Shown in pieces: positions 2,464-42,500 of a stretch of DNA of 64,000 bases. The stretch spans positions 2,455 through 66,454 of the forward strand of contig VXOG01000034.1 in NCBI GenBank assembly GCA_009840165.1. Direction: 5' to 3'. Both the position numbers and the translations under genes were made by a program. Under the pieces are notes generated by a model, which worked only from the letters and a program-made list of their open reading frames with translations, was not told the origin of the DNA and searched no databases. How positions within the stretch are numbered: the stretch's first letter is position 1; each line of letters opens with the position of its first letter. This stretch comes from Chloroflexota bacterium (GTDB taxonomy: Bacteria; Chloroflexota; Dehalococcoidia; Lucifugimonadales; UBA3495).

Positions 2464-3633
2464 ATGCCAAAGGATAATGTGGAAGTATTCTGGTTTTCCG
2501 AGCAGCCCTACGGCCACGTCACAGATGCAGATGTGGAGCAGTACGATTCGGGGCGGCTGGATTTCCCCAATTCCCACTTCGATCCCGAAAGGGCCCACGT
2601 GCTCTACAACCAGTACCACGAACAGTATGCGTGCGCCGACCAGAACGGCTTCGACGGCATCATGTCCAACGAGCACCACGCTTCGTACTGGTGCATGAAG
2701 CCGGCCGTCAACATCGACGCCGCCGTTATCTCCAAAGTCACTCGCAATACCAAGATCGCCATCCTGGGCAACGTTATTGCCATCAACGACCCCATCCGCA
2801 TGGCCGAAGAAATCGCCATGCTGGACTGCATCTCCGGCGGGCGGATCATATCCGGTTTCGTGCGCGGCACTGCGGTTGAGACTCTGCAAGGCGGAGTCGC
2901 TCCCCCGCAGAACCGGGACCGTTTCGAGGAAGCCCACGACCTCATCATCAAATGCTGGACCGAGCCGGGCCCGTTCCGATATGAGGGAGAGTATTACCAC
3001 TACCGTAAGGTGAACCCCTGGGTTCTCCCCATGCAGAAACCGCACCCGCCCATCTGGTTCCCCGGCTTCAGCAGCCCGGAATCGGTGGTGTGGGCAGCGA
3101 CCCACCGGCACCCCTATATGAACCTCGGCTCCCTGCTCGAACACACCCACCGCCTTCGCGACGTCTATATCGACACCGCCCGGGAGACGGGATTCCAGCC
3201 CGGGCCGGAACACTTCGGCTACCTGCTGCGCGTGTTCTGCGCAGACACCGATGAGAAGGCGCAGGAGTTGGGACGCGAGTTTCTGTGGACCCAGGAGCAC
3301 CGCAACCGCGGCCCCCGCGAGCACAACGACCCGCCCGGCTACCAGTCCCGCGAGGCGGTCAGCATCCAGCGGACGCTGCCCGGAGCCGGTGGGTTCGGGC
3401 GCATGATGACTTACGAGGAACTACAGGAAGCCAACAACATCATCGTGGGCAGCCCCGACACCGTGCGGGAAAAGCTGTCCATGATTATCGAACGCCTCAA
3501 TCCCGGCTACTTGCACATCTACGGAAACGAGGGCGCCATGGCCCACGAGGACGTGATGCGCTCCATCGAGCTGATCGGCCGCGAGGTAATTCCCGCCCTC
3601 CACGAAATCCCCCTGGTTGACCACTACGAGTAG
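2464..3633 (+). CDS. Luciferase-like (LLM) flavin-dependent monooxygenase
   Basis: 389 aa. LLM TIM-barrel pattern (SEQPY..., FDGIMSNEHH, AEEIAMLDCISGGRIISGF). GGAGGA RBS ahead of the ATG. Confidence 0.85.
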   Translation: MPKDNVEVFWFSEQPYGHVTDADVEQYDSGRLDFPNSHFDPERAHVLYNQYHEQYACADQNGFDGIMSNEHHASYWCMKPAVNIDAAVISKVTRNTKIAILGNVIAINDPIRMAEEIAMLDCISGGRIISGFVRGTAVETLQGGVAPPQNRDRFEEAHDLIIKCWTEPGPFRYEGEYYHYRKVNPWVLPMQKPHPPIWFPGFSSPESVVWAATHRHPYMNLGSLLEHTHRLRDVYIDTARETGFQPGPEHFGYLLRVFCADTDEKAQELGREFLWTQEHRNRGPREHNDPPGYQSREAVSIQRTLPGAGGFGRMMTYEELQEANNIIVGSPDTVREKLSMIIERLNPGYLHIYGNEGAMAHEDVMRSIELIGREVIPALHEIPLVDHYE

Positions 3634-4078: not shown

Positions 4079-5026
4079 ATGAGCGCGGAATTACCTGAGC
4101 GTCAAGCCTTCATCGGCGTCGGTACCATGGGCAGCCTGATGGCCGGCCGTCTGCTCGACGCCGGCGTAGATCTAACGGTGTTCGACATCCGGCGCGAGGC
4201 TGCGGATCCGCTGATCCAGCGCGGCGCGCGTTGGGCCGCCAGCGCGGAAAATGCGGCAAGCGGCTGCGAAGTGCTGTGGACTTCGCTCCCCGGGCCGGCT
4301 CAGGTCGAATCCGTCTTGCTCGGCAATGAGGCGGCGGTATTGTCGGCCTTGCCGGATGGGGCGGTATTGTCGGCCTTGCCGGATGGGGCGGTATTGTCGG
4401 CCTTGCCGGATGGGGCGGTATTGGTCGATACGACCACAAACGACCCCGATGTGGCTCGAAGGGTGGCAGATACCTGCGCTGGCCGTGGCATCGCAATGTT
4501 GGACGCTCCGGTCAGCGGCCGCCCACCTGCTATGACGATGATGGTGGGCGGCGACCCCTCGGTGTACGAAAAAGCATTGCCGTCGCTGGAAACGGTGGCC
4601 GCGCAGATCTTCTACGTCGGCCCGTCCGGCGCCGGCTGCGTAGCCAAGTTGGCAACCCAGTACATGGGCTACACCAACCTGATTGCCGCCATTGAGGGAA
4701 TGCTGATCGCCCGGATGGGTGGCGTGGACCCGGCGGTCCTGGCCAAGATCGTCCCGGTCAGCTCCGGCGCCAGCCGGGCATTCAACGCAATACCCAATTC
4801 CGTGCTGAACGGCTCATTTCAGGCCGGCGGCACCCTGGACATCGTAGCCAAGGACGTGGCTCTGGCTTGCGCGTTGGCCCAGCGGGAAAACGCCCCGGCA
4901 TCCACCGGGGAGGCGGCCAACACCCTCTATCGTCAGGCGCAGGAAGCGGGCTGGGGCAGCGAAGGCTACCCCATCGTCGCCCGCATCCTTGAGGCCATGG
5001 CGCACACGGAGTTGAGGAGCGAATAA
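4079..5026 (+). CDS. NAD(P)-dependent 3-hydroxyisobutyrate / 6-phosphogluconate dehydrogenase-family oxidoreductase
   Basis: N-terminal Rossmann motif FIGVGTMGSLMA; ...VDTTTNDP...LDAPVSG... typical of the HIBADH family. Contains an in-frame tandem repeat (next feature). Confidence 0.85.
   Translation: MSAELPERQAFIGVGTMGSLMAGRLLDAGVDLTVFDIRREAADPLIQRGARWAASAENAASGCEVLWTSLPGPAQVESVLLGNEAAVLSALPDGAVLSALPDGAVLSALPDGAVLVDTTTNDPDVARRVADTCAGRGIAMLDAPVSGRPPAMTMMVGGDPSVYEKALPSLETVAAQIFYVGPSGAGCVAKLATQYMGYTNLIAAIEGMLIARMGGVDPAVLAKIVPVSSGASRAFNAIPNSVLNGSFQAGGTLDIVAKDVALACALAQRENAPASTGEAANTLYRQAQEAGWGSEGYPIVARILEAMAHTELRSE
4334..4423. repeat. 27-bp perfect tandem repeat, about 3.3 copies, in frame inside the dehydrogenase gene
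   Basis: gcggtattgtcggccttgccggatggg at 4334-4360, 4361-4387 and 4388-4414, plus a partial copy. Encodes AVLSALPDG three times. Confidence 0.95.
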
Positions 5027-5090
5027 CGGCCTCACTTGACCGACGGTTGTGATACCATTTGCCAGCGCCAGTTGCGCCCGGAGGAAAATC

Positions 5091-6470
5091 ATGGCAATTA
5101 CGTTCCAACCCAGCGCCTACAGTGGGCTGGTTGACGATGACAATGGCATGGTCAGCCGGGAGATATTCGTCAATGCTGACATCTACGCCGAGGAGCAGGA
5201 GCGCATTTTCACCCGCGCTTGGCTTTTCGTCGGGCATGAGAGCCAGGTTGCCAAGCCCGGCGACTTCTTCGTCTCGTCCATGGGCGAGGAATCGGTCATC
5301 CTCTGCCGCGACCGTCAGGGTGAGATTCACGTCTTCCTCAACTCCTGCATGCACCGGGGCATGAAGGTGTGTCGCTACGACGAGGGCAACACGCCCATCT
5401 TCACCTGCCCCTACCACGGCTGGAGCTTCGCCACCGATGGCGCGCTGGTCGGCGTCCCGTTCTACAAAGACGCCTACCACGAGGAACTGGACAAGTCCCA
5501 GTGGAGCCTCATCCGCGTCCCCAAGATGGTCAACTACAAGGGCGGCATCTGGGCCACCTGGGACCCGAACGCCCCCGACTTCCTAGATTATATCGGCGGG
5601 TTCAAAACCTATCTTGACATCCTGTTCGACGGGTGGGACGGCTCCGAAGGCGGCACCGAAATCATCGGCGGCATCGAGAAGTGGATGGTGCCCAGCAACT
5701 GGAAGTTCCCCGCCGAAAACTTCATCGGCGACCGCTACCACAACATCAGCCACCGCTCCGTTGACCTGGTGGGCATCGGCCCGTCAGGACAGGGCCGCCG
5801 CGACAACAGCGAGCGCGAGGGCGCAAAGTCCCTGGACGTGTCCTTCCCCGAGCGCGGCCACGGCACCGTGATGTTCCTCAGGCCCGAGGACGCGCAGCCC
5901 GTTCCGTCGTACCAGAACGACCCCATCGTGTCCGATTACTTCTACCAGTGCGAAATCGCCCGCAAGGAGCGACAGGGACAGTTGTGGCGCATCCTGGCCG
6001 GGCCGGGAACGATCTTCCCCAACATGTCCTTCCTGCCCCGCCAGCCGCGCAGCATCGCCGTGTGGCACCCTCGAGGCCCCGACCAGACCGAAGTGTGGCG
6101 CTGGTTCCTGGTGGACAGCAGCGCGCCGCCGGAAGTCAAAGAATTCCTGCGCCAGTACTACATCCGCTACTCGGGCCCCGCCGGTTTGACTGAACAGGAC
6201 GACATGGAGAACTGGAACTACGCCCACGCCGCCAGCCGGGGCGCGATGGCCCGCCGGCACCACTACAACTACCAGATGGGCATGGGCTACGCGGTTACCG
6301 ATTTCGAGGACGGCGGCCTGAAACTCGACGGCACTGTGCTGGATACCACCAAGGCCCGCGCCGGCGAGCAGAATCAGCGCGGTTTCTACAGCCGCTGGCG
6401 GGAGTTCATGGCGGCGCGGGATTGGGACGAGCTGGCAACCTGGCGCAACGGCAACGGCGCGGCCTGTTAG
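5091..6470 (+). CDS. Rieske non-heme-iron ring-hydroxylating oxygenase, alpha subunit
   Basis: Rieske motif CMHRG...CPYHGW; mononuclear-iron region NFIGDRYHNISH. GGAGGA RBS 5 nt before ATG 5091 (track ORF starts at 5049). Confidence 0.9.
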   Translation: MAITFQPSAYSGLVDDDNGMVSREIFVNADIYAEEQERIFTRAWLFVGHESQVAKPGDFFVSSMGEESVILCRDRQGEIHVFLNSCMHRGMKVCRYDEGNTPIFTCPYHGWSFATDGALVGVPFYKDAYHEELDKSQWSLIRVPKMVNYKGGIWATWDPNAPDFLDYIGGFKTYLDILFDGWDGSEGGTEIIGGIEKWMVPSNWKFPAENFIGDRYHNISHRSVDLVGIGPSGQGRRDNSEREGAKSLDVSFPERGHGTVMFLRPEDAQPVPSYQNDPIVSDYFYQCEIARKERQGQLWRILAGPGTIFPNMSFLPRQPRSIAVWHPRGPDQTEVWRWFLVDSSAPPEVKEFLRQYYIRYSGPAGLTEQDDMENWNYAHAASRGAMARRHHYNYQMGMGYAVTDFEDGGLKLDGTVLDTTKARAGEQNQRGFYSRWREFMAARDWDELATWRNGNGAAC

Positions 6471-6478
6471 GTGGCGCT

Positions 6479-7024
6479 ATGGTAGTCGCCAACGATCCGC
6501 TGGCAATGCTGTTGCTCAAACAGGACGTGGAAGCGTTCCTGTACCACGAGGCCAACCTGCTGGACGACCGCCGCTACGAGGAGTGGCTGGATCTGCTCAC
6601 CGACGACGTTCGCTACTGGGTACCCATGCGACGCAACGTCAAGTTCGGCGAGCTGGAGCGCGAGTTCACCCGCGAAGGCCAGGACATCAACTGGTTCGAC
6701 GAGGGCAAGGCCACGCTCACGCAGCGGGTCAGGCAGATCCTCACCGGCGTCCACTGGGCCGAGGAGCCGTTGTCCCGCCTCTCCCACCTGGTCACCAACG
6801 TTGAAATACTGGACGCATCGCCAACTGCGGCGGACGCAGAGGAAGTGTCGTTGCGTTGCCGGTTCATCATCTATCGCAACCGTGTGGAAACCGAGACCGA
6901 CCTCCTGGTGGGCCGCCGGGAGGACTCCCTGCGTCGCGTGGATGGTGAATGGCAGATCGCCAAGCGCCAGGTGTTCCTGGATCAGAACGTTTTGCTCGCC
7001 AAGAACCTCACCTTCTTTTTCTGA
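6479..7024 (+). CDS. Ring-hydroxylating dioxygenase beta subunit (NTF2/SnoaL fold)
   Basis: VEAFLYHEANLLDDRRYEEWLDLLTDDVRYWVP is the classic beta-subunit N-terminus. Sits directly after the alpha subunit. Confidence 0.85.
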   Translation: MVVANDPLAMLLLKQDVEAFLYHEANLLDDRRYEEWLDLLTDDVRYWVPMRRNVKFGELEREFTREGQDINWFDEGKATLTQRVRQILTGVHWAEEPLSRLSHLVTNVEILDASPTAADAEEVSLRCRFIIYRNRVETETDLLVGRREDSLRRVDGEWQIAKRQVFLDQNVLLAKNLTFFF

Positions 7025-7642: not shown

Positions 7643-7675
7643 CCCTGCGACCATTCCTGAGATAACCGTCTGCCG

Positions 7676-7787
7676 CACCACCACCGTCATTCCCGCACCA
7701 CCACCGTCATTCCCGCGAAAGCGGGAATCCAGGCCGCGGGGCGACACCCGCACATCAAGCTCCTGGATTCCGGCCCAAGGCCGGAAT
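7676..7787. repeat. Cluster of REP-like elements: 20-bp tandem duplication plus two hairpins
   Basis: caccaccaccgtcattcccg occurs twice in tandem (7676-7695, 7696-7715). Hairpin attcccgc-gaaa-gcgggaat at 7709-7728; hairpin attccggcc-caa-ggccggaat at 7767-7787. Confidence 0.85.
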
Positions 7788-7836
7788 GACGAATACAAAT
7801 GCCCGAAACAACGAATTTCATTGTGGAGTAGCAACG

Positions 7837-8646
7837 ATGTCCCAGCAAATGGTTGATTTGATGGAAGCGGTATGGCAGTCCATAGACGGCCTGTGCGCCA
7901 ACCTAACGCCTGAACAGTGGGCTTTGCCCACCGAATGCCCCGGCTGGGCGGTGCAGGACCAGGTATCCCACCTCGTGGGCAGCGAGTGCCGATTGCTGGG
8001 GCGCCCAGCGCCTGAGCACGAGCCGGATGATACCTCCCACGTGCGCAACGAGGTCGGGCAGAGCAACGAGGTGCTGGTTGACTACCGGCGCCGGTTCAAC
8101 GGCGTGGAGGTTCTGGCTGAGTTCAGGGAAATCACGGCCGAACGGCTGCGGGTGTTGCGCGGCATGACGGAAGGGGATTTCACCGTCGAAACCCCCAATC
8201 CGCTGGGCAGCGGCCCCTACACCGACCTGCTCGCGATACGCATCTACGACGCCTGGGTCCACGAGCAGGATATGCGTCGCACGCTGGGCATCCCTGGCCA
8301 CCTGGGCGGCCCGGTGGCCCAGCACTCTTATGGCCGCACCCAATCGGCTATGCCCTTCGTAGTGGGCCGCAAGGTAAGGCCCGACGACGGCACAACGGTG
8401 GTGTTCGAGATCACCGGCGAGGTGGGCGGCTCCATCGCCCTCAGCATGGAGGGCGGACGCGCCAACCGCATGGACGCCGCTCCCGATTCGCCAACAGTTC
8501 GCCTGACCATGGGCCTGGAACCCTTCAACGCTCTAGGCACCGGCCGGTGGACGGCAGAGCACGCACTCGCCAACGGGTCGGTGACCATTGACGGAGACCA
8601 GGCGCTGGGCGAGCGGATTGTGGCGGAGATGAACTTTATGATTTGA
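7837..8646 (+). CDS. DinB-like / maleylpyruvate-isomerase-family (mycothiol-dependent enzyme family) protein
   Basis: N-terminus ...LTPEQWALPTECPGWAVQDQVSHLVG typical of that family. Preferred ATG is 7837; the track ORF starts inside the REP cluster at 7786. Confidence 0.7.
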   Translation: MSQQMVDLMEAVWQSIDGLCANLTPEQWALPTECPGWAVQDQVSHLVGSECRLLGRPAPEHEPDDTSHVRNEVGQSNEVLVDYRRRFNGVEVLAEFREITAERLRVLRGMTEGDFTVETPNPLGSGPYTDLLAIRIYDAWVHEQDMRRTLGIPGHLGGPVAQHSYGRTQSAMPFVVGRKVRPDDGTTVVFEITGEVGGSIALSMEGGRANRMDAAPDSPTVRLTMGLEPFNALGTGRWTAEHALANGSVTIDGDQALGERIVAEMNFMI

Positions 8647-9101: not shown

Positions 9102-9986
9102 ATGGAAATTGGCGTTTCGGTTCCCATTGTAGAGATTGGCGACGACTTTGGCGCGCTGCGGGATTACATCCAGGCCGCTGAAGATTTGGGATACTCGCAC
9201 GTGCGCATCCTGGACCACGTGCTGGGCGCGGTGCCGGAGAAGCATCCGGAGGTTCCGCAGTTCCCTTATACGCACGAATCCTACATCCACGAGCCGTTCA
9301 CCCTGATGGCCTACCTGGCCGCCGTGACCAAGAAGATTGGGCTGACCACCGGCATCCTGATCCTGCCTCAGCGTCAGACGGCGTTGGTTGCCAAGCAGGC
9401 GGCGGAGGTTGACCTGCTGTCCGGAGGCCGGCTGCGATTGGGCATCGGCGTGGGCTGGAACTCGGTGGAGTACGAGGCGCTGGGCGTCGATTTCGCCACC
9501 CGGGGCAGCCGCTGCGATGAGCAGATCGAGGTACTGCGTCAACTGTGGACTGAGGAGGTCATCGACTTTCACGGCAAGTACCACGACATCACCCATGCCG
9601 GCATCAACCCGCTGCCGGTACAACAGCCCATTCCCATCTGGATCGGCGCCGGCCGCAGCACGTCGCCCACACCACCCAACGCAGCCATCCGACGCATCGG
9701 ACGGCTGGCTGACGGTTACTTCCCCATGTTCGCCCCCGACGCCGGGGGGCAGGCCATCCTGGGCCGCATCCGCGCCCAGGCCGAAGCGGTAGGCCGGGAT
9801 CCGTCGGAAGTCGGCTTCGAGGGCCGCATCACCATCACCGCCGACAACAACCCGGAAGACTGGCTCACCGAGCTGAAGTCATGGGAAGAAATCGGCGCAT
9901 CGCACATCGCCGCCGGCCTGCGCGGCGCTACGTCTCCGGACGCCCACATCGACGCCATCCGACGGCTGAAAGAGGCCACGGGGTAA
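9102..9986 (+). CDS. LLM-class F420-dependent oxidoreductase
   Basis: 294 aa. ...HVRILDHV..., AKQAAEVDLLSGGRLRLGIGVGW, WIGAG pattern of the short LLM/F420 class. Confidence 0.85.
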   Translation: MEIGVSVPIVEIGDDFGALRDYIQAAEDLGYSHVRILDHVLGAVPEKHPEVPQFPYTHESYIHEPFTLMAYLAAVTKKIGLTTGILILPQRQTALVAKQAAEVDLLSGGRLRLGIGVGWNSVEYEALGVDFATRGSRCDEQIEVLRQLWTEEVIDFHGKYHDITHAGINPLPVQQPIPIWIGAGRSTSPTPPNAAIRRIGRLADGYFPMFAPDAGGQAILGRIRAQAEAVGRDPSEVGFEGRITITADNNPEDWLTELKSWEEIGASHIAAGLRGATSPDAHIDAIRRLKEATG

Positions 9987-10000
9987 TTCGTGGGTTACGT

Positions 10001-10094
10001 TGTCATTGCGAGCGAAGCGTGGCAATCCCGTTCATTCAGCGGGATTGCCGCGTCACTGTACTCCTAGCGTGCCGAATAATTATTAGCCCCTACA
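10001..10094. repeat. Composite intergenic repeat: 'gtcattgcgagcg..ggcaatccc' element with hairpin, plus a half-copy of the 'cgaataattattNgcccctaca' element
   Basis: 10001-10032 matches 45263-45294 at 31/32 positions. Hairpin ggcaatcccg...cgggattgcc at 10021-10049. 10072-10094 matches the right half of the palindrome at 48207-48234. Confidence 0.8.
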
Positions 10095-10115
10095 ATCCCA
10101 CAAGGGAGAAAGTCA

Positions 10116-11051
10116 ATGAGTCAGCAAACCAACGGCAACCGTATCCGGCTGCGGGTAGCCTTCCGCAATATGTTCTACACCACAATTTACGCGGCGGTGG
10201 AGGGTGGGTTCCTGGCCGCTGAGGGTCTGGATATCGACTTTTCCCATATCCCAACGGGCCAGTCCAGCACCGACCTGCTCAAGTCCGGCGACATCGACAT
10301 CACGCAGAGCGGCATCAGCCGCAGCTTCATGGATCTGGATGCTGGCAGCGATGCCCCGCCCCTGCATATCGCCGAGATCAACCAGCGGGACGGGTTCTTC
10401 CTGCTGTCCAAGCGTCCAACCGACGGTTGGACGTGGGCAGACCTGGTTGGCGCAACGCTGATCCCGGTGGGATTCACGCCGGTTCCTTACACCACGTTGC
10501 AGGCCGCAATGCGCTGGCACGGGGTAGATCCGACCAGCATCAACCTGATGGGCGGACTGTCCGCCGAGGAAATGCTGGCCCGCTTCCGCAACGGCGACGC
10601 CGACTATCTGCAAGTTCCATATCCTTTTGCCGGGCAGTTGATTGATGAAGGCGCGGGCCACCTGGCGGTTACGCTGGGCAATGAGAGCGGTTACGTGTGC
10701 TACAGCAGCTTTGCGGCCACGCCGGAGTATGTGGCGCAAAATCCCGACACCGTGCAGCGGTTCGTCAACGGCTACGCCCGTGCCCAACAGTGGGTTGCAG
10801 ACAATGAACCCGCGGCCGTGGCCGAATGTATCACGCCGGTTTTCCCCGAATACGACAAGTCCTTGTTGTCTGATGGGGTGCGCCGCTACAAGCAGGCCGG
10901 CGTGTGGGCCACCAATCCGATGATCGGCCGCGAAGGTTTTGACCGGATGCGCGACGCCCTGATCAACGGCGGTTTGGTGCGGGAACCCCATCCTTACGAG
11001 AACATCGTCACGCCAGGGTTTGCGGAGCGTGCGATGGCGCGTTTGGCGTAA
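10116..11051 (+). CDS. NMT1/THI5-like (NitT/TauT-type) substrate-binding-fold protein with no evident signal peptide
   Basis: 311 aa. ...FYTTIYAAVEGGFLAAEGLDIDF... typical of NMT1-like SBPs. The N-terminus is hydrophilic. Confidence 0.7.
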   Translation: MSQQTNGNRIRLRVAFRNMFYTTIYAAVEGGFLAAEGLDIDFSHIPTGQSSTDLLKSGDIDITQSGISRSFMDLDAGSDAPPLHIAEINQRDGFFLLSKRPTDGWTWADLVGATLIPVGFTPVPYTTLQAAMRWHGVDPTSINLMGGLSAEEMLARFRNGDADYLQVPYPFAGQLIDEGAGHLAVTLGNESGYVCYSSFAATPEYVAQNPDTVQRFVNGYARAQQWVADNEPAAVAECITPVFPEYDKSLLSDGVRRYKQAGVWATNPMIGREGFDRMRDALINGGLVREPHPYENIVTPGFAERAMARLA

Positions 11052-11340: not shown

Positions 11341-11650
11341 AACAGCTGGGTCAAAGCGATCATATGACCGGAATGTCGGTTGGTGCCGTTTCTGGGTGGG
11401 CGTCAGCTTGGCGATTGCTACGCTGACGTTCACGTTTGCCGTAGAGCGAGTGTTCGACCCTGCTACGGCTCTTAGAGGTTCGGCAGAAACGGAGAGCATA
11501 GGTCAAGTCGAAGTGATCAGCGTCGTCAGTATTGGTGTTGTATTTACACTCATCCTACTCTCGGCCGTTTGTGCAGTTCTCTCAGCTCGGTTCAGGACTC
11601 TGTACCGTCGCGACGATGCCGCACTCTCTTACACTGAGGGGAAAAACTAG
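11327..11650 (+). CDS. Hypothetical small membrane protein
   Basis: 107 aa with two hydrophobic helices. Overlaps the previous ORF by 14 nt. Confidence 0.4.
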   Translation: MLRTETAGSKRSYDRNVGWCRFWVGVSLAIATLTFTFAVERVFDPATALRGSAETESIGQVEVISVVSIGVVFTLILLSAVCAVLSARFRTLYRRDDAALSYTEGKN

Positions 11651-11661
11651 GAGGCCACACA

Positions 11662-12414
11662 ATGAGGCTGGAAGGCAAAGTCGCAATCATCACCGGCGGC
11701 GCGCGCGGACAGGGCGCCACCGAAGCCAGGATGTTTGCCCAGGAAGGCGCGAAGGTGGTCATCGGCGACGTGCGGGACGAACTCGGTATGCAGGTGGAAG
11801 CCGAGATTCGCGAACTGGGCGGCGAGGCGGTTTACCTGCACCTGGACGTGACCAACGCCGATGACTGACAAAACGCCGTGGATACCGCCGAGCAGCGATT
11901 TGGCAAGGTGGACGTGCTGGTGAACAACGCCGCCATCGTGCTGCGGAAGGACATCGAGGAAACCACCTCCGAAGACTGGGACAACATCATGGACGTCAAC
12001 GCCAAGGGCGTATTCCTGGGCACCAGGGCCGTGATACCCGCCATGCGTCGGGCCGGCGGTGGCAGCATCATCAATATCTCGTCGATCAGCGGTTTGGTGT
12101 CCATCGGCCCGCCGGCATACATCGCCACCAAGGGCGCGGTCCGCCTGTTCACCAAGTCCACTGCTATCCAGTACGCTGCGGAAAACATCCGCGCCAACTC
12201 CATTCACCCGGGCGCCGTGGACACTGATATGCGCCGCGGCGGGCTGGAAAATCAAACGGCCGAAGAGATCCAGGAGCGACTGAGTCAGATTCCCTTGGGC
12301 CGCGTGGGCACCACCGAGGATATATCGTACGGGGCACTGCTCCTGGCGTCCGAAGAGTCCTCGTTCATGACGGGCAGCGAACTGGTCATCGACGGCGGCT
12401 ATACCGCGAAGTGA
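11662..12414 (+). pseudogene. Short-chain dehydrogenase/reductase (SDR) interrupted by a single in-frame TGA (11866-11868)
   Basis: TGGARGQG cofactor motif, NNAAI, S...Y..TK catalytic residues. Track ORFs 11662-11868 and 11878-12414 share one frame: ...LDVTNADD[TGA]QNAVDTAEQRFGKVDVLVNNAAI. Confidence 0.8.
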
Positions 12415-12424
12415 AGCGCAGATA

Positions 12425-12787
12425 ATGCTGAACATCGCCGAAGAATTGCTGCTCCTGCTTATGGACGAAGACAGCGGGGAATATACCCCGGTTCCGGAAC
12501 GCACGCTCGGCTACGCGCTGACCGGGGCGACGTTAATTGAGCTGGAACTACGGCATCGCATTGACGTAGGCCCCGAGGCGCTGGTTGTAGCCGACCCAAC
12601 GCCAGTGGGTGATGACCTGCTGGACCCGGTTCTGGCCGATATGGTGTCGGTGTCGCGTAACGCTGCCCACAATGCTGAGTTCTGGGTTCGGCGAATAGCG
12701 CAAAGTTCGGATGAACTACTGACCCGGGCACTTGCGGGGCTGGCCGCCCAAGGCATGATCGAAGCCGATGAAAATCGAAGCCGATGA
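12425..12787 (+). CDS. GPP34/GOLPH3-like domain, N-terminal fragment (truncated by a frameshift)
   Basis: MLNIAEELLLLLMDEDSGEY... is the characteristic GPP34-family start. The ORF ends a few codons after the 16-bp duplication. Confidence 0.65.
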   Translation: MLNIAEELLLLLMDEDSGEYTPVPERTLGYALTGATLIELELRHRIDVGPEALVVADPTPVGDDLLDPVLADMVSVSRNAAHNAEFWVRRIAQSSDELLTRALAGLAAQGMIEADENRSR

Positions 12788-12789
12788 AA
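12758..12789. repeat. Perfect 16-bp tandem duplication causing a frameshift
   Basis: atcgaagccgatgaaa at 12758-12773 and again at 12774-12789. Removing one copy joins the two ORFs as ...GMIEADESGFFFLS... Confidence 0.95.
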
Positions 12790-14456
12790 GCGGCTTCTTC
12801 TTCCTGTCTCGCCGCGCCACTCTTGCCCGTCGCCATGCAGCGACTCAAAGCCAGCAAGCGGAGGAAACCCGTCAACGTATATTGCAGGCGATTTTCAGCG
12901 ACATCATCCCGGATACCAGGGACATAGTTATCATCAGCCTGGCCCATGCCTGCGACATATTCCAGCGGATATTGCCGACTGACGAGTACGAAGAGGCACG
13001 CGAGCGGATCGAACTAATTTCCCGTCTGGAGATGATAAGCCGGTCGGTCATCGACGGCATTCGCAACTTGACGCTGGCGGAAGCCTACGCCCGGCGTCGT
13101 GGCATACAGGAAAAGGGCGGCGGCTGGCCGCGTGCATCGGGGCATTTGCCCATCATCGGCCACGTGCTGCAATTCCGCAAAACGATAAACGGATTTCTAA
13201 CGGAACAGTACCGAAACCTGGGGCCGGTGTTTGAAGTATCGTTACTCGGCAAAAAGTGGCTGGTGCTGGCCGGGCCGGAAGCGAATCGCTTTCTAATGCG
13301 AGAAGGCCGGGATTGCCTGCATAACGATCATGTGGCGTGGCAGGGGTTCGCCCAACAATTCGGTGGTACCAGGTCCCTGGCCGGGATGGACGGCCCGGAG
13401 CACGTGCGTCTGCGGCGGCTCATGCGGGACGGCTACTCCCGCGGTCAGCTGGTGAAAGATATACCTCAGGCCGTGGCCATAGTAGAGAACGAGATGCGGC
13501 AATGGCCGGAAAATCGTCCAGTTTCAGTTTATCCCAGCGTACAGCGCATGGTCGTGGACCAACTGGGCACATTGATGTCCGGCATATCTCCCAAGGAACA
13601 CGTTGACGATATACTAACCTTTATCCACGCGCTGGAAATGGTCTATATGGCCAGGATGTACCCGAAGTTTATGGCATATACGCCGAAGGTTCGGCGAGCG
13701 CGCCGGCGTGTCGAAGCGCTCTTTGAGCAAGTGCTCGCCGCCCACGAGCCGACGCTGCGCTCCGAGGAAACGCCAAATCTCTCCGACATCCTGATGGAAA
13801 CGAGGCGTTCGGCGCCCGACTTTATCACGGATACCGACCTGTTCGTTGACTCCATAGGGCCGTATCTGGCCGGGGCGGACACCTCATCCTCAGCAACCTC
13901 CCTCATGCTCTACTCGCTGCTGAAGCATCCCGACGTGCTGGAGCGTGTGCGCGATGAGGCCGATCACCTGTTTGCCGATGGCGCGCCAACGGCGACCGGC
14001 CTGAATGATCTGCCGGTCACCCAGCGGGCGATTCAAGAAACGCTGCGACTGCATCCCATCGTCCCGGTAATGGTGCGCACGGTGGCGAACTCCTTTGAAT
14101 TCGCCGGCTACTGGATTCCCGCCGGGACGTCGGTGTGGGTGGCCATGCCGGTTTCGCATCATTTACCCGAGCTGTACCCTGATCCGGAGCGTTTTGACAT
14201 TGACCGCTTTTTGCCGGAGCGTCGGGAGCACGGGCAGCCGGGAGCTTACACGCCGTTCGGATTCGGGCCGCACAGTTGCCTCGGCCAGGGAGCGGCGCAG
14301 GCCCAAATGACCCTCATCATCGCAACAATCCTGCATCGAGCGGACATCGTCCTGGACCCGCCCGATTACCAGATGAAATTGGATTCCATACCCGTACCAT
14401 CACCGAACCGCAGTTTCAAAATCCGGCTGACGCAATGGCGTCAGAAGGGAGGATAG
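12768..14456 (+). CDS. Cytochrome P450 preceded by the continuation of the GPP34-like domain
   Basis: ExxR (ETLRL) and heme loop FGFGPHSCLGQG. The first roughly 95 aa are not P450-like and continue the upstream GPP34-like ORF. Confidence 0.85.
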   Translation: MKIEADESGFFFLSRRATLARRHAATQSQQAEETRQRILQAIFSDIIPDTRDIVIISLAHACDIFQRILPTDEYEEARERIELISRLEMISRSVIDGIRNLTLAEAYARRRGIQEKGGGWPRASGHLPIIGHVLQFRKTINGFLTEQYRNLGPVFEVSLLGKKWLVLAGPEANRFLMREGRDCLHNDHVAWQGFAQQFGGTRSLAGMDGPEHVRLRRLMRDGYSRGQLVKDIPQAVAIVENEMRQWPENRPVSVYPSVQRMVVDQLGTLMSGISPKEHVDDILTFIHALEMVYMARMYPKFMAYTPKVRRARRRVEALFEQVLAAHEPTLRSEETPNLSDILMETRRSAPDFITDTDLFVDSIGPYLAGADTSSSATSLMLYSLLKHPDVLERVRDEADHLFADGAPTATGLNDLPVTQRAIQETLRLHPIVPVMVRTVANSFEFAGYWIPAGTSVWVAMPVSHHLPELYPDPERFDIDRFLPERREHGQPGAYTPFGFGPHSCLGQGAAQAQMTLIIATILHRADIVLDPPDYQMKLDSIPVPSPNRSFKIRLTQWRQKGG

Positions 14457-14460
14457 AATC

Positions 14461-15723
14461 ATGGCGGCTTCCCCTCAACCCGCTCCGCGTTATCACGACC
14501 TCGACGCTTTGCGCGCCGTGGCTACGTTGCTTGGCATCGCGCTGCACGGCGCCTTCTTCGTGCTGCCCGAGCTGATTTACCCCTGGCCGGTGCATGACAA
14601 ATCCGTCGGCAACGACCCGACCTATCACATCATCCTTGACATCACCCACGGTTTGCGGACTCCGGTGTTTTACTTGCTCAGCGGCCTGTTCAGCGTATTA
14701 CTCTGGGAACGCCGAGGTCTGCACTCGCTGGGGATGCAGCGGCTCAAGCGCCTCGGTCTTCCGCTGGCCGTCGGGTGCTTCACGATAATTCCGCTCACTG
14801 CCCTGGCCATGGCCTTGACCTCGGGGAGGGAACATCCATACGACTTCCCATTCTGGGCCTTGCCGTTCATCTGGCTCTTCGCCACGATGCACCTGTGGTT
14901 CCTCTGGAACTTGCTGCTGATGGTTGGCGTCTTTATCATTCTGGCCAAACCTTCTATCGTTCTGGCGCCGCTGTTTGGCGTCCTGGCCCGGCTGGGGCTG
15001 CGCTTCGACGTGAGTAGGCTGGACCGGCTGGGAGTGCAATTCCGCAACCCGAAAATCTGGTTGCTGACCATTCCGATTTCAGCGGCGGCCTCTCTGCTGA
15101 TGCAGGAACCCATCTTTGGGGCCGACTCCCTGCAAAGCCTGATCCCCAAGCCGGCTACGTTTGTCTTCTACACCTGCTTCTTCTTTTTCGGCGCGTTTCT
15201 CTACCAGCAGGGCGTCGCGGTGCGCCGCTGGTGGACAATCGCCCTGCTGCCCGCGGCAGTCACCTTCTGCATTGGCTTCCTCTTGCTCCGGGAGTATGCC
15301 GCGGAGGCCAAGCCTTTCACTCACGGGGAGTTGCCCGAACTCGTTTGGATGTTCAGCAACCGGCTAACGGCGATCAGCGCTCTGGCTGAAACGGCCTTTG
15401 CCTGGCTGACGTGTTTCGGCATGATGGGACTGTTCCGCTGGCTGCTTTCCCGCCCCAGCTTCACGGTGCGATACCTCTCCGACGCCAGTTATTGGATCTA
15501 CCTGGCGCATCTTCCGCTGATTATTGTGGCTCACTGGCTGGTCGTCGATTGGCCCATCAGCTACCACCTGAAGTACGTCCTGGCCTGTGTCGGCGTCACC
15601 GTAGTGCTGGTGATTTCCTATCAACTCTTCATCCGCTACACGTTCATCGGCAACGTTTTGAACGGCCCCCGGACCCGGCGGAAGTCGCAGCCGCGTCCGG
15701 CGGCAACGCAAAGCGCGTCATGA
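14461..15723 (+). CDS. Acyltransferase family 3 integral membrane protein
   Basis: 420 aa, about 10 TM segments. N-terminal YHDLDALRAVATLLGIALH motif of acyltransferase_3. Starts 5 nt after the P450 stop, with a GGAGGA RBS. Confidence 0.85.
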   Translation: MAASPQPAPRYHDLDALRAVATLLGIALHGAFFVLPELIYPWPVHDKSVGNDPTYHIILDITHGLRTPVFYLLSGLFSVLLWERRGLHSLGMQRLKRLGLPLAVGCFTIIPLTALAMALTSGREHPYDFPFWALPFIWLFATMHLWFLWNLLLMVGVFIILAKPSIVLAPLFGVLARLGLRFDVSRLDRLGVQFRNPKIWLLTIPISAAASLLMQEPIFGADSLQSLIPKPATFVFYTCFFFFGAFLYQQGVAVRRWWTIALLPAAVTFCIGFLLLREYAAEAKPFTHGELPELVWMFSNRLTAISALAETAFAWLTCFGMMGLFRWLLSRPSFTVRYLSDASYWIYLAHLPLIIVAHWLVVDWPISYHLKYVLACVGVTVVLVISYQLFIRYTFIGNVLNGPRTRRKSQPRPAATQSAS

Positions 15724-15861
15724 TTTTGCGACACCACGCAGGCAGGTTCAATCAAGCGAGGACTGACCGATGACCACCTTGCCCCAAAAAGCCCTGGCCA
15801 CCCTCAGCGGCGAGGCCGGCGTCCCCAGCATCCACGCTGCCATTGCGCCGGGCGGATAGTC

Positions 15862-16389
15862 TTGGCTCGTTTCAGGGCATGCGCCGACTGCGGGCGGCGC
15901 ATACGTGGCAGATTCTTTCGTTGCCATCGATGTAACCAACGTCGCCGCAGGGGTCGCTGGCACGACCCCGAGCATCTGGACGGTTTGGAAAAGCGCGACG
16001 CGGAACTCGGCCGGACCGCGTTTTACGTTTACGTGCTGGACACTGATTATGGCCTTTACGTGGGCCACACCGCCAATGTGGGCGCCAGGGTGGGTGCCCA
16101 CGTTGCTGACGCGGTGGAGTCTACTGCCGGCGGCCAAGCCGAGTTGCTTTGGACTTCGTACCCGTTTCGCACCCGCCGAGAATCGGCGAGATTTGAAGCT
16201 GCACTGAAGTCCTTAAGGGACCAGCGTTCAGAACGATTCACAGAAATCACTGGCCTGGAACCCATTCCATTCGAGCCGGTTCCCAACGACGCCTCGCGTA
16301 CGCCGGCCGAACGACGCGGCTTCGGCCGTGGGCTGTTGAGTGTAATAGCGATGAGCGTAGTCCGCCTCTGGCGGATGGCAATTCGATGA
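15862..16389 (+). CDS. GIY-YIG nuclease-domain protein with an N-terminal zinc-ribbon-like CxxC...CxxC
   Basis: FYVYVLDTDYGLYVGHTANVGARVGAH fits GIY-(x)-YVG...R..H. N-terminus has CADCG...CHRCN. TTG start is uncertain. Confidence 0.6.
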   Translation: MARFRACADCGRRIRGRFFRCHRCNQRRRRGRWHDPEHLDGLEKRDAELGRTAFYVYVLDTDYGLYVGHTANVGARVGAHVADAVESTAGGQAELLWTSYPFRTRRESARFEAALKSLRDQRSERFTEITGLEPIPFEPVPNDASRTPAERRGFGRGLLSVIAMSVVRLWRMAIR

Positions 16390-41806: not shown

Positions 41807-42500
41807 GGTTAGACACCCCCGTGCTTGCGGCAAGCGACGCAATGTTATTTGGTTCGGAGGCTCACCGTAGGCCCGGCTGCAAAGGTTTGTCAACCCTACC
41901 CAGAACTCGCGCGTACTTGGTTTCAATTGAGCGGGCGTTGAAAGAGAATTACAGCCAATTCCCCAAAACGGTGACACCCGCCCGTTGACCCAACCGGAAC
42001 GCCGGTTCTATCATAGTCTCATCACGTGAAAGACCAGCTGGTCTCGGCAAATCCCATCCCCATCCCAAACCTGCCAGAGGTGAACCTAACCATTCGGTCG
42101 TAACGGCCAGTCAGTAAAAATCGCATACGTCCGGCAAGACCTCGTTCGGCCAATACCTCACCGAGCGGACCGGTCCCAACGGACACCGCAGTGACCGGAC
42201 TGCGGGTGGCCTGCCTCCTCGGATGCAGTCCCGAAACCTAACGCGGATAAACCCTTGCGTAAAACCCCCGGCCGTGGGCTGACAGCGACCATCGGAAACC
42301 CTCACCTCTGGCAGGCAAAGGAGAACCCCAAACCCCGATCCCCCGCTCTTCCTGAGCCCTTCGCCTGAGCCCTTCCAAGGATCAAACCCAAAGGAGAACA
42401 CCAATCGAAACATTACACCGACTAAACGACCAACCATAACCAGGCATCGCCATGCGAAACCCCGTTTGCGGCGGAACGCTCCTGCTCCGCTCCAGGCGGA

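Follow-up and report, generated by a model that had tools for sequence, protein, structure and literature searches.

Within a 64,000-nucleotide stretch of DNA from a Chloroflexota bacterium (contig VXOG01000034.1; this whole stretch is called the window here), two overlapping open reading frames (ORFs) together encode a GPP34 domain and a cytochrome P450, and a membrane acyltransferase gene follows almost without a gap. The locus raises two questions: whether the two ORFs represent two genes or one, and what a P450 that carries a GPP34 domain might do beside an acyltransferase. The first can be answered plainly: the window locus is one GPP34-P450 gene disrupted by a 16-bp duplication. As to the second, the gene neighbours suggest that the fusion protein hydroxylates a membrane lipid and that the neighbouring enzyme then tags the product.

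One GPP34-P450 gene interrupted by a 16-bp duplication

The following features make up the locus.

11662-12414, forward strand: short-chain dehydrogenase (SDR) gene directly upstream of the fusion, with an in-frame TGA
12425-14456, forward strand: GPP34-cytochrome P450 fusion gene (GPP34_L family), 671 codons after removal of one 16-bp copy, split as it stands
12425-12787, forward strand: ORF1, 120 aa, N-terminal half of the GPP34 domain plus 5 out-of-frame residues (NRSR + stop)
12768-14456, forward strand: ORF2, 562 aa, C-terminal half of the GPP34 domain, linker and complete P450
12758-12789, no strand: perfect tandem 16-bp duplication, ATCGAAGCCGATGAAA twice, frameshift at residues 112-116 within the GPP34 beta hairpin (strand 1)
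12777-12797, no strand: inverted repeat GAAGCCG-ATGAAAG-CGGCTTC, overlapping the second copy of the 16-bp repeat
12434-13049, forward strand: GPP34 (GOLPH3/Vps74-like) domain, reconstructed residues 4-203, Pfam PF05719
13137-14360, forward strand: cytochrome P450 domain, reconstructed residues 233-640, Pfam PF00067
14448-14453, forward strand: GGAGGA, ribosome-binding site for the acyltransferase gene, inside the last P450-gene codons and 7 nt before the ATG
14454-14456, forward strand: TAG stop of the P450 gene, read from the sequence
14461-15723, forward strand: acyltransferase-3 (AT3) integral membrane protein, 420 aa, intact, Pfam PF01757

The initial annotation had taken the first frame as the opening of a GPP34 domain, the start of the second as its continuation, and both together as a single 671-codon gene once the duplication is discounted. 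Profile searches bear this out. ORF1 matches positions 1-111 of the 201-position Pfam GPP34 profile (E 8.7e-24) and positions 1-116 of the family hidden Markov model (HMM), and ORF2 resumes the Pfam profile at positions 119-194 ahead of the P450 match (E 1.2e-69). The two ORFs, both on the forward strand, use different reading frames and have 20 nt in common. When one ATCGAAGCCGATGAAA copy is deleted, a single ORF of 2016 nt and 671 codons results, which matches PF05719 over profile positions 1-194 of 201 (E 4.8e-36, 125 bits against a cut-off of 29.1) and PF00067 with an E-value of 2.1e-69 (235 bits).

The 16-bp duplication is missing from three syntenic relatives (L001, L082 and L089) of about 90% nucleotide identity. 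The contig L001, which encodes the orthologue P0002, is about 90% identical on the DNA level to window positions 11649-16263 and carries an intact fusion gene in the same synteny; the order NMT1, small ORF, SDR, fusion, AT3, 177-aa ORF and amidohydrolase is common to both. In a collection of 5.8 billion proteins, the search found at least 120 clusters of single-ORF orthologues, nearly all of 650-690 aa with PF05719 and PF00067, at identities from 95% down to 42%. Two of them, P0001 and P0002, comprise exactly 671 aa and are 95% identical to the reconstruction. Two separate genes in the orthologues had been named at the outset as evidence against a fusion; instead, GPP34 and P450 share one polypeptide in the reconstruction and in all orthologues, and in the window the frame is split by the duplication.

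Could the overlapping ORFs be a natural functional split, i.e. two subunits or a programmed frameshift? The ATG of ORF2 lies 20 nt upstream of the ORF1 stop, and coupled re-initiation is conceivable. This ATG falls in the first repeat copy and is a fortuitous start. Moreover, the break divides the GPP34 domain internally: it falls in the hairpin's first strand and not in the domain linker, which identifies it as a lesion rather than a natural two-gene layout. It is caused by an exact repeat that the three relatives lack, and every intact orthologue is a single ORF. Because of the mid-domain break and the exact repeat we rejected both variants of this idea, which we consider highly improbable. 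The inverted repeat at 12777-12797 may form a hairpin that favoured the slippage behind the duplication. A scan for promoters and terminators gave matches no better than those in shuffled sequence.

The GPP34-P450 architecture is already known. According to Ferreira et al. (2025, Microbiome 13:4, PMC11706023), bacterial GPP34 proteins are short (GPP34_S) or long (GPP34_L), and 656 of the 663 long forms combine GPP34 with a cytochrome P450; as further partners fused to GPP34, a Rieske domain and an ABC ATPase are reported. With these 656 proteins published in January 2025, the novelty that the initial annotation implied for a P450 carrying GPP34 has lapsed. The same study found GPP34_L to be restricted to sponge symbionts of many phyla, expressed in situ, and present in approximately 80% of sponge-associated Dehalococcoidia genomes. 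Like the published proteins (about 660-680 aa), the reconstructed gene encodes an N-terminal GPP34 domain followed by a P450, and the spread matches as well, with Chloroflexota/Dehalococcoidia among the richest carriers; the window copy, however, carries the 16-bp interruption, and the function proposed in that paper differs from our operon-based reading. There, the protein is viewed as a secreted effector that binds phosphatidylinositol 4-phosphate (PI4P) and blocks phagosome maturation, a model put forward without experiments on the protein or secretion data. The paper makes no mention of acyltransferase, sulfotransferase, MFS, efflux, sterol, signal peptides or PI4P-pocket residues, and long-form neighbourhoods were not examined in it.

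When one genome per GTDB species was scanned, at least 518 related stretches emerged from more than 10 bacterial lineages. The best 80 loci, which we examined, belong to Dehalococcoidia, SAR202, Anaerolineales, Caldilineaceae, Gemmatimonadota, Binatia, Latescibacterota, Acidobacteriota, Alpha- and Gammaproteobacteria, Spirochaetia, Rhodothermaceae and Bacteroidota. All 80 are from metagenome-assembled genomes (MAGs), the nearest relatives of the window being Dehalococcoidia/Chloroflexota MAGs. Close orthologues bear the NCBI name 'cytochrome P450 [Chloroflexota bacterium]'.

The two domains of the fusion

The relationship of the N-terminal domain to GOLPH3 and Vps74 became visible with a family profile, which finds Vps74 (E 6e-10) and GOLPH3 (E 1.2e-9) in the PDB; a single-sequence PDB search with the whole protein returned P450s only, and the top 50 Foldseek matches of the full-length model are all P450 structures. 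The model of a short GPP34 homologue that is 48% identical to the window domain (pLDDT 90) matches GOLPH3 with a TM-score of up to 0.72 (E 5e-8), and GOLPH3/Vps74 are its sole hits at E<=0.001. In the full-length AlphaFold model (pLDDT 83.6, pTM 0.76), strands at residues 112-114 and 120-122 (DSSP) form a beta hairpin between helices; ahead of the Pro-rich hinge of the P450 lie a long helix (residues 201-225) and then a linker of low confidence (235-243). The family thus shares with GOLPH3/Vps74 (PDB 3KN1, 2ZIH, 9QPQ) the helical fold and the projecting beta3/beta4 hairpin. It differs in that identity is only about 17-19%, the N-terminal disordered region is absent, the domain is fused to an enzyme, and the hosts have neither Golgi nor COPI. 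No second GPP34 gene was found in the window.

It is important to note that the residues lining the PI4P pocket have changed. This pocket has been defined by structure and mutagenesis as W81/R90/R171/R174 in GOLPH3 and W88/R97/K178/R181 in Vps74 (Wood et al. 2009). By HMM alignment, the window protein has P24, T33, D96 and L99 at these positions, so that all four pocket residues are absent. Among 42 fusions the four positions are occupied by Pro (40/42), Ala (35/42), Asp/Glu (31/42) and Arg (34/42), i.e. W is replaced by P, R by A/T and K/R by D/E, and 74 short GPP34 forms show the same replacement pattern. With three of four pocket residues replaced across the family, the canonical PI4P pocket is not conserved, and the phosphoinositide binding that had been suggested by analogy to GOLPH3 finds no backing in residue conservation. 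Two elements have been kept by the family: the hairpin (residues 112-122) and, directly behind it, an Arg-Arg-Tyr patch (130-132), which reads RRH in the window. Met1 of the first GPP34 helix is an invariant start without any N-terminal extension, which leaves no room for a signal peptide. The family therefore possesses neither the PI4P pocket nor an export signal.

These features bear directly on the published proposal, in which a secreted GPP34 domain binds host phagosomal PI4P to block maturation, with the P450 as an accessory (Ferreira et al. 2025). The fold is truly GOLPH3/Vps74-like, the family is reported only from sponge symbionts over many phyla and is expressed in situ, and the isolate prefixes of several of the 80 MAG loci look like sponge-MAG series. 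Short GPP34 genes, moreover, stand alone in variable contexts. On the other hand, long and short forms alike have three of the four pocket residues replaced, the signal peptide and N-terminal extension are lacking, the fused partner requires heme and a redox chain, and the source paper holds no secretion data. Since there is no export signal and the enzyme depends on heme and redox partners, a place in the cytoplasm or at the membrane is favoured over secretion. Docking also fits better than secretion because the Rieske and ABC ATPase fusion partners are likewise intracellular and cofactor-dependent. An effector role thus appears improbable to us.

The P450 domain has its catalytic motifs, including the two that the initial annotation had noted (ETLR motif and heme loop) and that we could read in place: an I-helix AGADTSS, the ExxR motif (ETLR, 14037-14048), PERF, and the heme loop FGFGPHSCLG (14256-14285, Cys codon 14277-14279). 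In 42 family members Cys613, E533/R536 of the ExxR motif, G478 of the I-helix and the PERF residues are invariant, and at least 90% of the members also share T481 of this helix. The nearest solved structures are those of CYP120A1 from Synechocystis, a retinoic acid hydroxylase (2VE3; E 1.4e-43, 27-28% identity, TM 0.84), and of CYP51, the sterol 14-alpha-demethylase (e.g. Methylococcus 6MI0/7JJ1; E 6e-41, 25-26% identity, TM 0.85), with CYP3A next. CYP120A1 and CYP51 share the E-class fold and the Pro-rich N-terminal hinge with the window P450, which like CYP51 has a His two residues before the Cys ligand. However, identities of 25-28% are below the 40% that usually delimits a CYP family, and the I-helix reads AGADTSS where the aligned Methylococcus CYP51 has AGHHTSS; the general CYP51 signature of this helix contains His. 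Membership in CYP51 was rejected on both counts and membership in CYP120 on identity to CYP120A1. Low identity and the I-helix difference together indicate, on the sequence level, a separate CYP family that is neither CYP51 nor CYP120. At most, NCBIfam gave sub-threshold matches to terpene oxygenases. The nearest P450 structures act on lipophilic substrates, namely retinoic acid (CYP120A1) and sterols (CYP51). Neither a second P450 gene nor a 4Fe-4S ferredoxin motif was found in the window, and no redox partner is encoded there.

From sequence comparison the fusion appears to be a cytoplasmic E-class P450 in which GPP34 sits where microsomal P450s have their transmembrane anchor. Functionally, the two would be analogous: both precede the Pro-rich hinge of an E-class P450, albeit as a single transmembrane helix in the microsomal enzymes and as a folded peripheral domain of about 200 aa, according to prediction, in the fusion. 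P450 BM3 and the CYP51-ferredoxin of Methylococcus likewise combine a P450 with a second domain in one polypeptide. In the window protein, by contrast, the extra domain is N-terminal, has no cofactor motif and does not serve electron transfer.

Hydroxyl-conjugating enzymes beside the fusion

The acyltransferase gene starts at 14461, 5 nt past the P450 stop (4-nt spacer), and has its own GGAGGA ribosome-binding site, just as first described. Its product is a multi-pass membrane acyltransferase (PF01757 over residues 12-386, E 4e-23, 82 bits against a cut-off of 31) with a weak, sub-threshold match to MdoC/OpgC and 98% amino acid identity to the AT3 of L001. Synteny with the acyltransferase, a check that had been proposed along with the fusion, holds throughout the clade of the window, which belongs to Dehalococcoidia/Chloroflexota: in 15 of 17 members, the window counted, the fusion is directly followed by AT3 in the same orientation (exceptions L008 and L013), at distances of -4 to +58 nt. 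The fusion is probably co-transcribed with AT3, and translational coupling is predicted.

For a wider survey we called ORFs in 81 loci plus the window (82 in total), clustered them, annotated the cluster representatives with Pfam and searched again with cluster HMMs. A gene on the same strand within 1 kb of the fusion was counted as a partner (within 1.6 kb for MFS). The partners are distributed as follows.

Sulfotransfer_3 sulfotransferase: 24/82 loci
Acyl_transf_3: 22/82 loci, window included
EcKL/APH-type kinase followed by a DHA2-type MFS efflux pump: 12/82 loci
Kinase or MFS alone: 2/82 loci
None of the three partner types: 22/82 loci

A same-strand partner (AT3, sulfotransferase, EcKL kinase and/or DHA2 MFS) is thus present in 60 of the 82 loci. 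AT3, sulfotransferase and kinase genes reach a density of 0.153 per kb beside the fusion, compared with 0.008 per kb over the other 1.1 Mb of flanking sequence, an enrichment of approximately 19-fold. In a neighbour-joining tree the partner type tracks the fusion clade while the clades mix phyla, which argues for transfer as a cassette. Other neighbours of the window gene (SDR, NMT1, the GIY-YIG-like ORF and amidohydrolase) were rejected as parts of a family-level module because they are syntenic in the closest relatives only; for the SDR this means L001, L008, L082 and L089. Both the pattern of partner linkage and the absence of the PI4P-pocket residues appear to be new observations.

Acyltransferases of this type, sulfotransferases and kinases all transfer a group onto a hydroxyl, and P450s make hydroxyls. 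The family is under purifying selection, has kept its catalytic residues and is tightly linked to hydroxyl-conjugating enzymes as well as, in one clade, to efflux pumps. We therefore lean, with some reserve, towards a membrane-docked monooxygenase that works within a cassette for hydroxylation, conjugation and, in some clades, export. In this scheme GPP34 would dock the enzyme on the cytoplasmic face of the membrane via its beta hairpin and the Arg-Arg-Tyr patch, not via a PI4P pocket. The P450, supplied with electrons by redox partners that would be encoded elsewhere, would hydroxylate a hydrophobic, membrane-partitioned substrate, probably isoprenoid- or sterol-like, and the linked AT3 would O-acylate the new hydroxyl. 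In sister clades a sulfotransferase, or an EcKL/APH-type kinase followed by a DHA2-type MFS pump, replaces AT3 and presumably its chemical step, and the whole unit would be a horizontally mobile 'hydroxylate, conjugate, export' cassette. The oxidise-then-acylate or membrane-targeted module of the initial annotation hence gains strong comparative support from the sister clades, its chemistry being a matter of analogy.

A precedent for such a pairing is the cyp128-stf3 operon of M. tuberculosis (sulfomenaquinone S881), where a menaquinone, an isoprenoid lipid of the membrane, is proposed to be hydroxylated by the P450 and then sulfated. As in the sulfotransferase-linked fusion clades, a P450 gene adjoins a sulfotransferase gene there, and the window is analogous with acylation, its P450 gene directly adjoining a same-strand hydroxyl-group transferase across the 4-nt spacer. 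The relationship is on the superfamily level only: CYP128 has no GPP34 domain, and the partner in the window is AT3.

The partner genes also bear on the rival readings. Operons with a membrane acyltransferase, sulfotransferases, kinases and efflux pumps are typical of small-molecule metabolism, a further point against a secreted effector. Alternatively, GPP34 might not be an anchor but a module for oligomerisation, regulation or recruitment of a substrate or partner, e.g. by Vps74-like hairpin tetramerisation or client-tail binding. The Vps74/GOLPH3 hairpin does mediate oligomerisation, proteins of that family bind client tails, the short forms act without a P450, and the pTM of 0.76 would suggest a defined inter-domain arrangement. 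However, the partners comprise a membrane AT3, a soluble sulfotransferase and a kinase, and because they vary in type a single protein client is unlikely. The N-terminal position, moreover, is that of microsomal P450 anchors, and the basic/aromatic patch beside the hairpin suits a membrane surface. We regard such a recruiting or oligomerising role as unlikely, albeit less so than secretion.

Several points weigh against the docked monooxygenase in its cassette. For every member of the family, the substrate, the redox partner and the attachment to a membrane are predictions, and 22 of the 82 loci lack any of the three partner types, although some of these have an APH kinase, ICMT-type methyltransferase, acyl-CoA synthetase or other MFS gene nearby. 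The neighbour HMMs derive from the same loci, so the background of 0.008 per kb is possibly underestimated. The pocket comparison is a profile alignment at about 17-19% identity, so that lipids may bind via another surface, and the full-length model was judged on pLDDT and pTM. Three short stand-alone GPP34 genes that are close relatives of the fused domain have variable contexts, in which no adjacent P450 genes were found; the domain thus performs some function without strictly depending on a P450. Finally, the fusion is broken in the window, so that the cassette may be inoperative in this organism.

Among the families reported as sponge-symbiont-specific, the GPP34-P450 fusion ranks as one of the most widespread, and the untried effector model has been its sole published explanation. 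The operon pattern and the missing PI4P residues offer an alternative, namely that membrane lipids are hydroxylated and then acylated, sulfated or phosphorylated, with export as a further step in some clades. If true, this would link symbiont genomes to modified sponge lipids and represent a new mode of attaching a P450 to a membrane. More tentatively, one may generalise that bacterial GPP34 would be a peripheral docking domain in place of the transmembrane anchor of microsomal-type P450s, and that GPP34_L would be the phase-I enzyme of horizontally exchanged cassettes (hydroxylation, then acylation, sulfation or phosphorylation, then export) with which sponge symbionts of diverse taxa modify lipids of the host or holobiont (sterols, terpenoids), hence a metabolic trait and not a phagosome effector.

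Some genomes harbour two or three GPP34-P450 paralogues of different clades. In one Gemmatimonadetes MAG (L014, L016 and L040) the partners are AT3, AT3 and sulfotransferase, which suggests several parallel cassettes per symbiont; L018 and L042 as well as L024 and L029 are further such sets. PhyH-type (phytanoyl-CoA dioxygenase family) genes and tandem sulfotransferase copies stand beside the fusions of L019, L038, L039, L049 and L051, and in L053 and L070 the fusion has a sulfatase gene nearby.

State of the window copy and other features

The fusion is not the only damaged gene of the locus. The SDR gene just upstream has a second disruptive lesion, a TGA at 11866-11868 where the three close relatives have TGG (Trp, ...NADDWQNAV...). 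Recoding of TGA to Trp was rejected, as the AT3 gene ends with TGA at the same length as in the relatives. Over the approximately 20 kb that the window has in common with L001 and L082, SDR and fusion are the only genes that are broken in the window. In comparison with L001, the ratio of nonsynonymous to synonymous substitution rates (dN/dS) amounts to 0.07 for the whole fusion, 0.116 for its GPP34 portion and 0.037 for its P450 portion, in line with 0.05 for the SDR gene and with 0.067 and 0.066 for the intact neighbours AT3 and amidohydrolase. Relaxed selection was thus not seen in the broken fusion gene. As dN/dS points to strong purifying selection, the lesions in the window are either very recent or artefactual, and judging from these ratios the fusion has undergone no long-term decay.

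The copy in the window is therefore inactivated or mis-assembled, and we think that the lesion is probably real. The opposite possibility is less probable but deserves to be taken seriously: frameshift and premature SDR stop could both stem from errors of assembly or sequencing or represent minority variants, and the organism would then have an intact SDR-GPP34/P450-AT3 operon. It accords with the undiminished constraint, with several more perfect short tandem duplications in the window, and with obvious errors in related assemblies, such as the split ABC-transporter and NMT1 genes of L001. In L082 the frame of the fusion breaks at approximately 5837-5887, where a poly-G run is garbled; the coverage given in the contig name is 4x, and this break is thus probably an error. 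On the other hand, a perfect 16-bp duplication and a TGG-to-TGA substitution are untypical of read errors, and the two affected genes adjoin each other in what looks like one operon, with about 12 further shared genes undamaged. Furthermore, the fusion of L089 is also broken, at approximately 6232-6287 by a 1-bp G insertion, in a syntenic contig whose name indicates a circular 4.09-Mb genome at 93x. This break may be real, so that true inactivation may occur in the clade; the breaks in L082 and L089 are independent and may reflect recurrent inactivation. The error reading touches only the condition of this copy and can be reconciled with the functional model. The window itself thus holds a broken or mis-assembled copy of a known family, which automatic annotation would mis-call as two genes.

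Repeats of similar kind occur elsewhere in the window. The gene at 4079-5026 (NAD_binding_2, 3-hydroxyisobutyrate-dehydrogenase-like) contains a perfect in-frame 27-bp repeat in 3.4 copies (4333-4423), which divides the Pfam Rossmann-domain match into two stretches. Further perfect short tandem duplications lie at 7673-7716 (20 bp, 2.2 copies), followed by a hairpin (ATTCCCGC GAAA GCGGGAAT), and at 42351-42375 (13 bp, 1.9 copies). The window is unusually rich in exact short duplications, which could be due to mutational bias or an assembly artefact.

Downstream of AT3, a 175-aa ORF (15862-16389) gives a weak GIY-YIG match and is about 72% identical to its L001 and L082 counterparts, compared with 94-98% for the flanking genes; it is fast-evolving. 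An ABC transporter gene (fused membrane and ATPase domains, 650 aa) that relatives have between a luciferase-like monooxygenase and the NMT1-like gene (L001 5697-7650, L082 1063-3015, L089 595-2547) is missing from the window at 9986-10116. The upstream region is dense in oxygenase-type genes (2464-3633, 5049-7024, 7786-8646 and 9102-9986); the upstream genes include two luciferase-like monooxygenases, the alpha and beta subunits of a Rieske ring-hydroxylating dioxygenase, and a DinB/MDMPI protein with an SCP2 domain.

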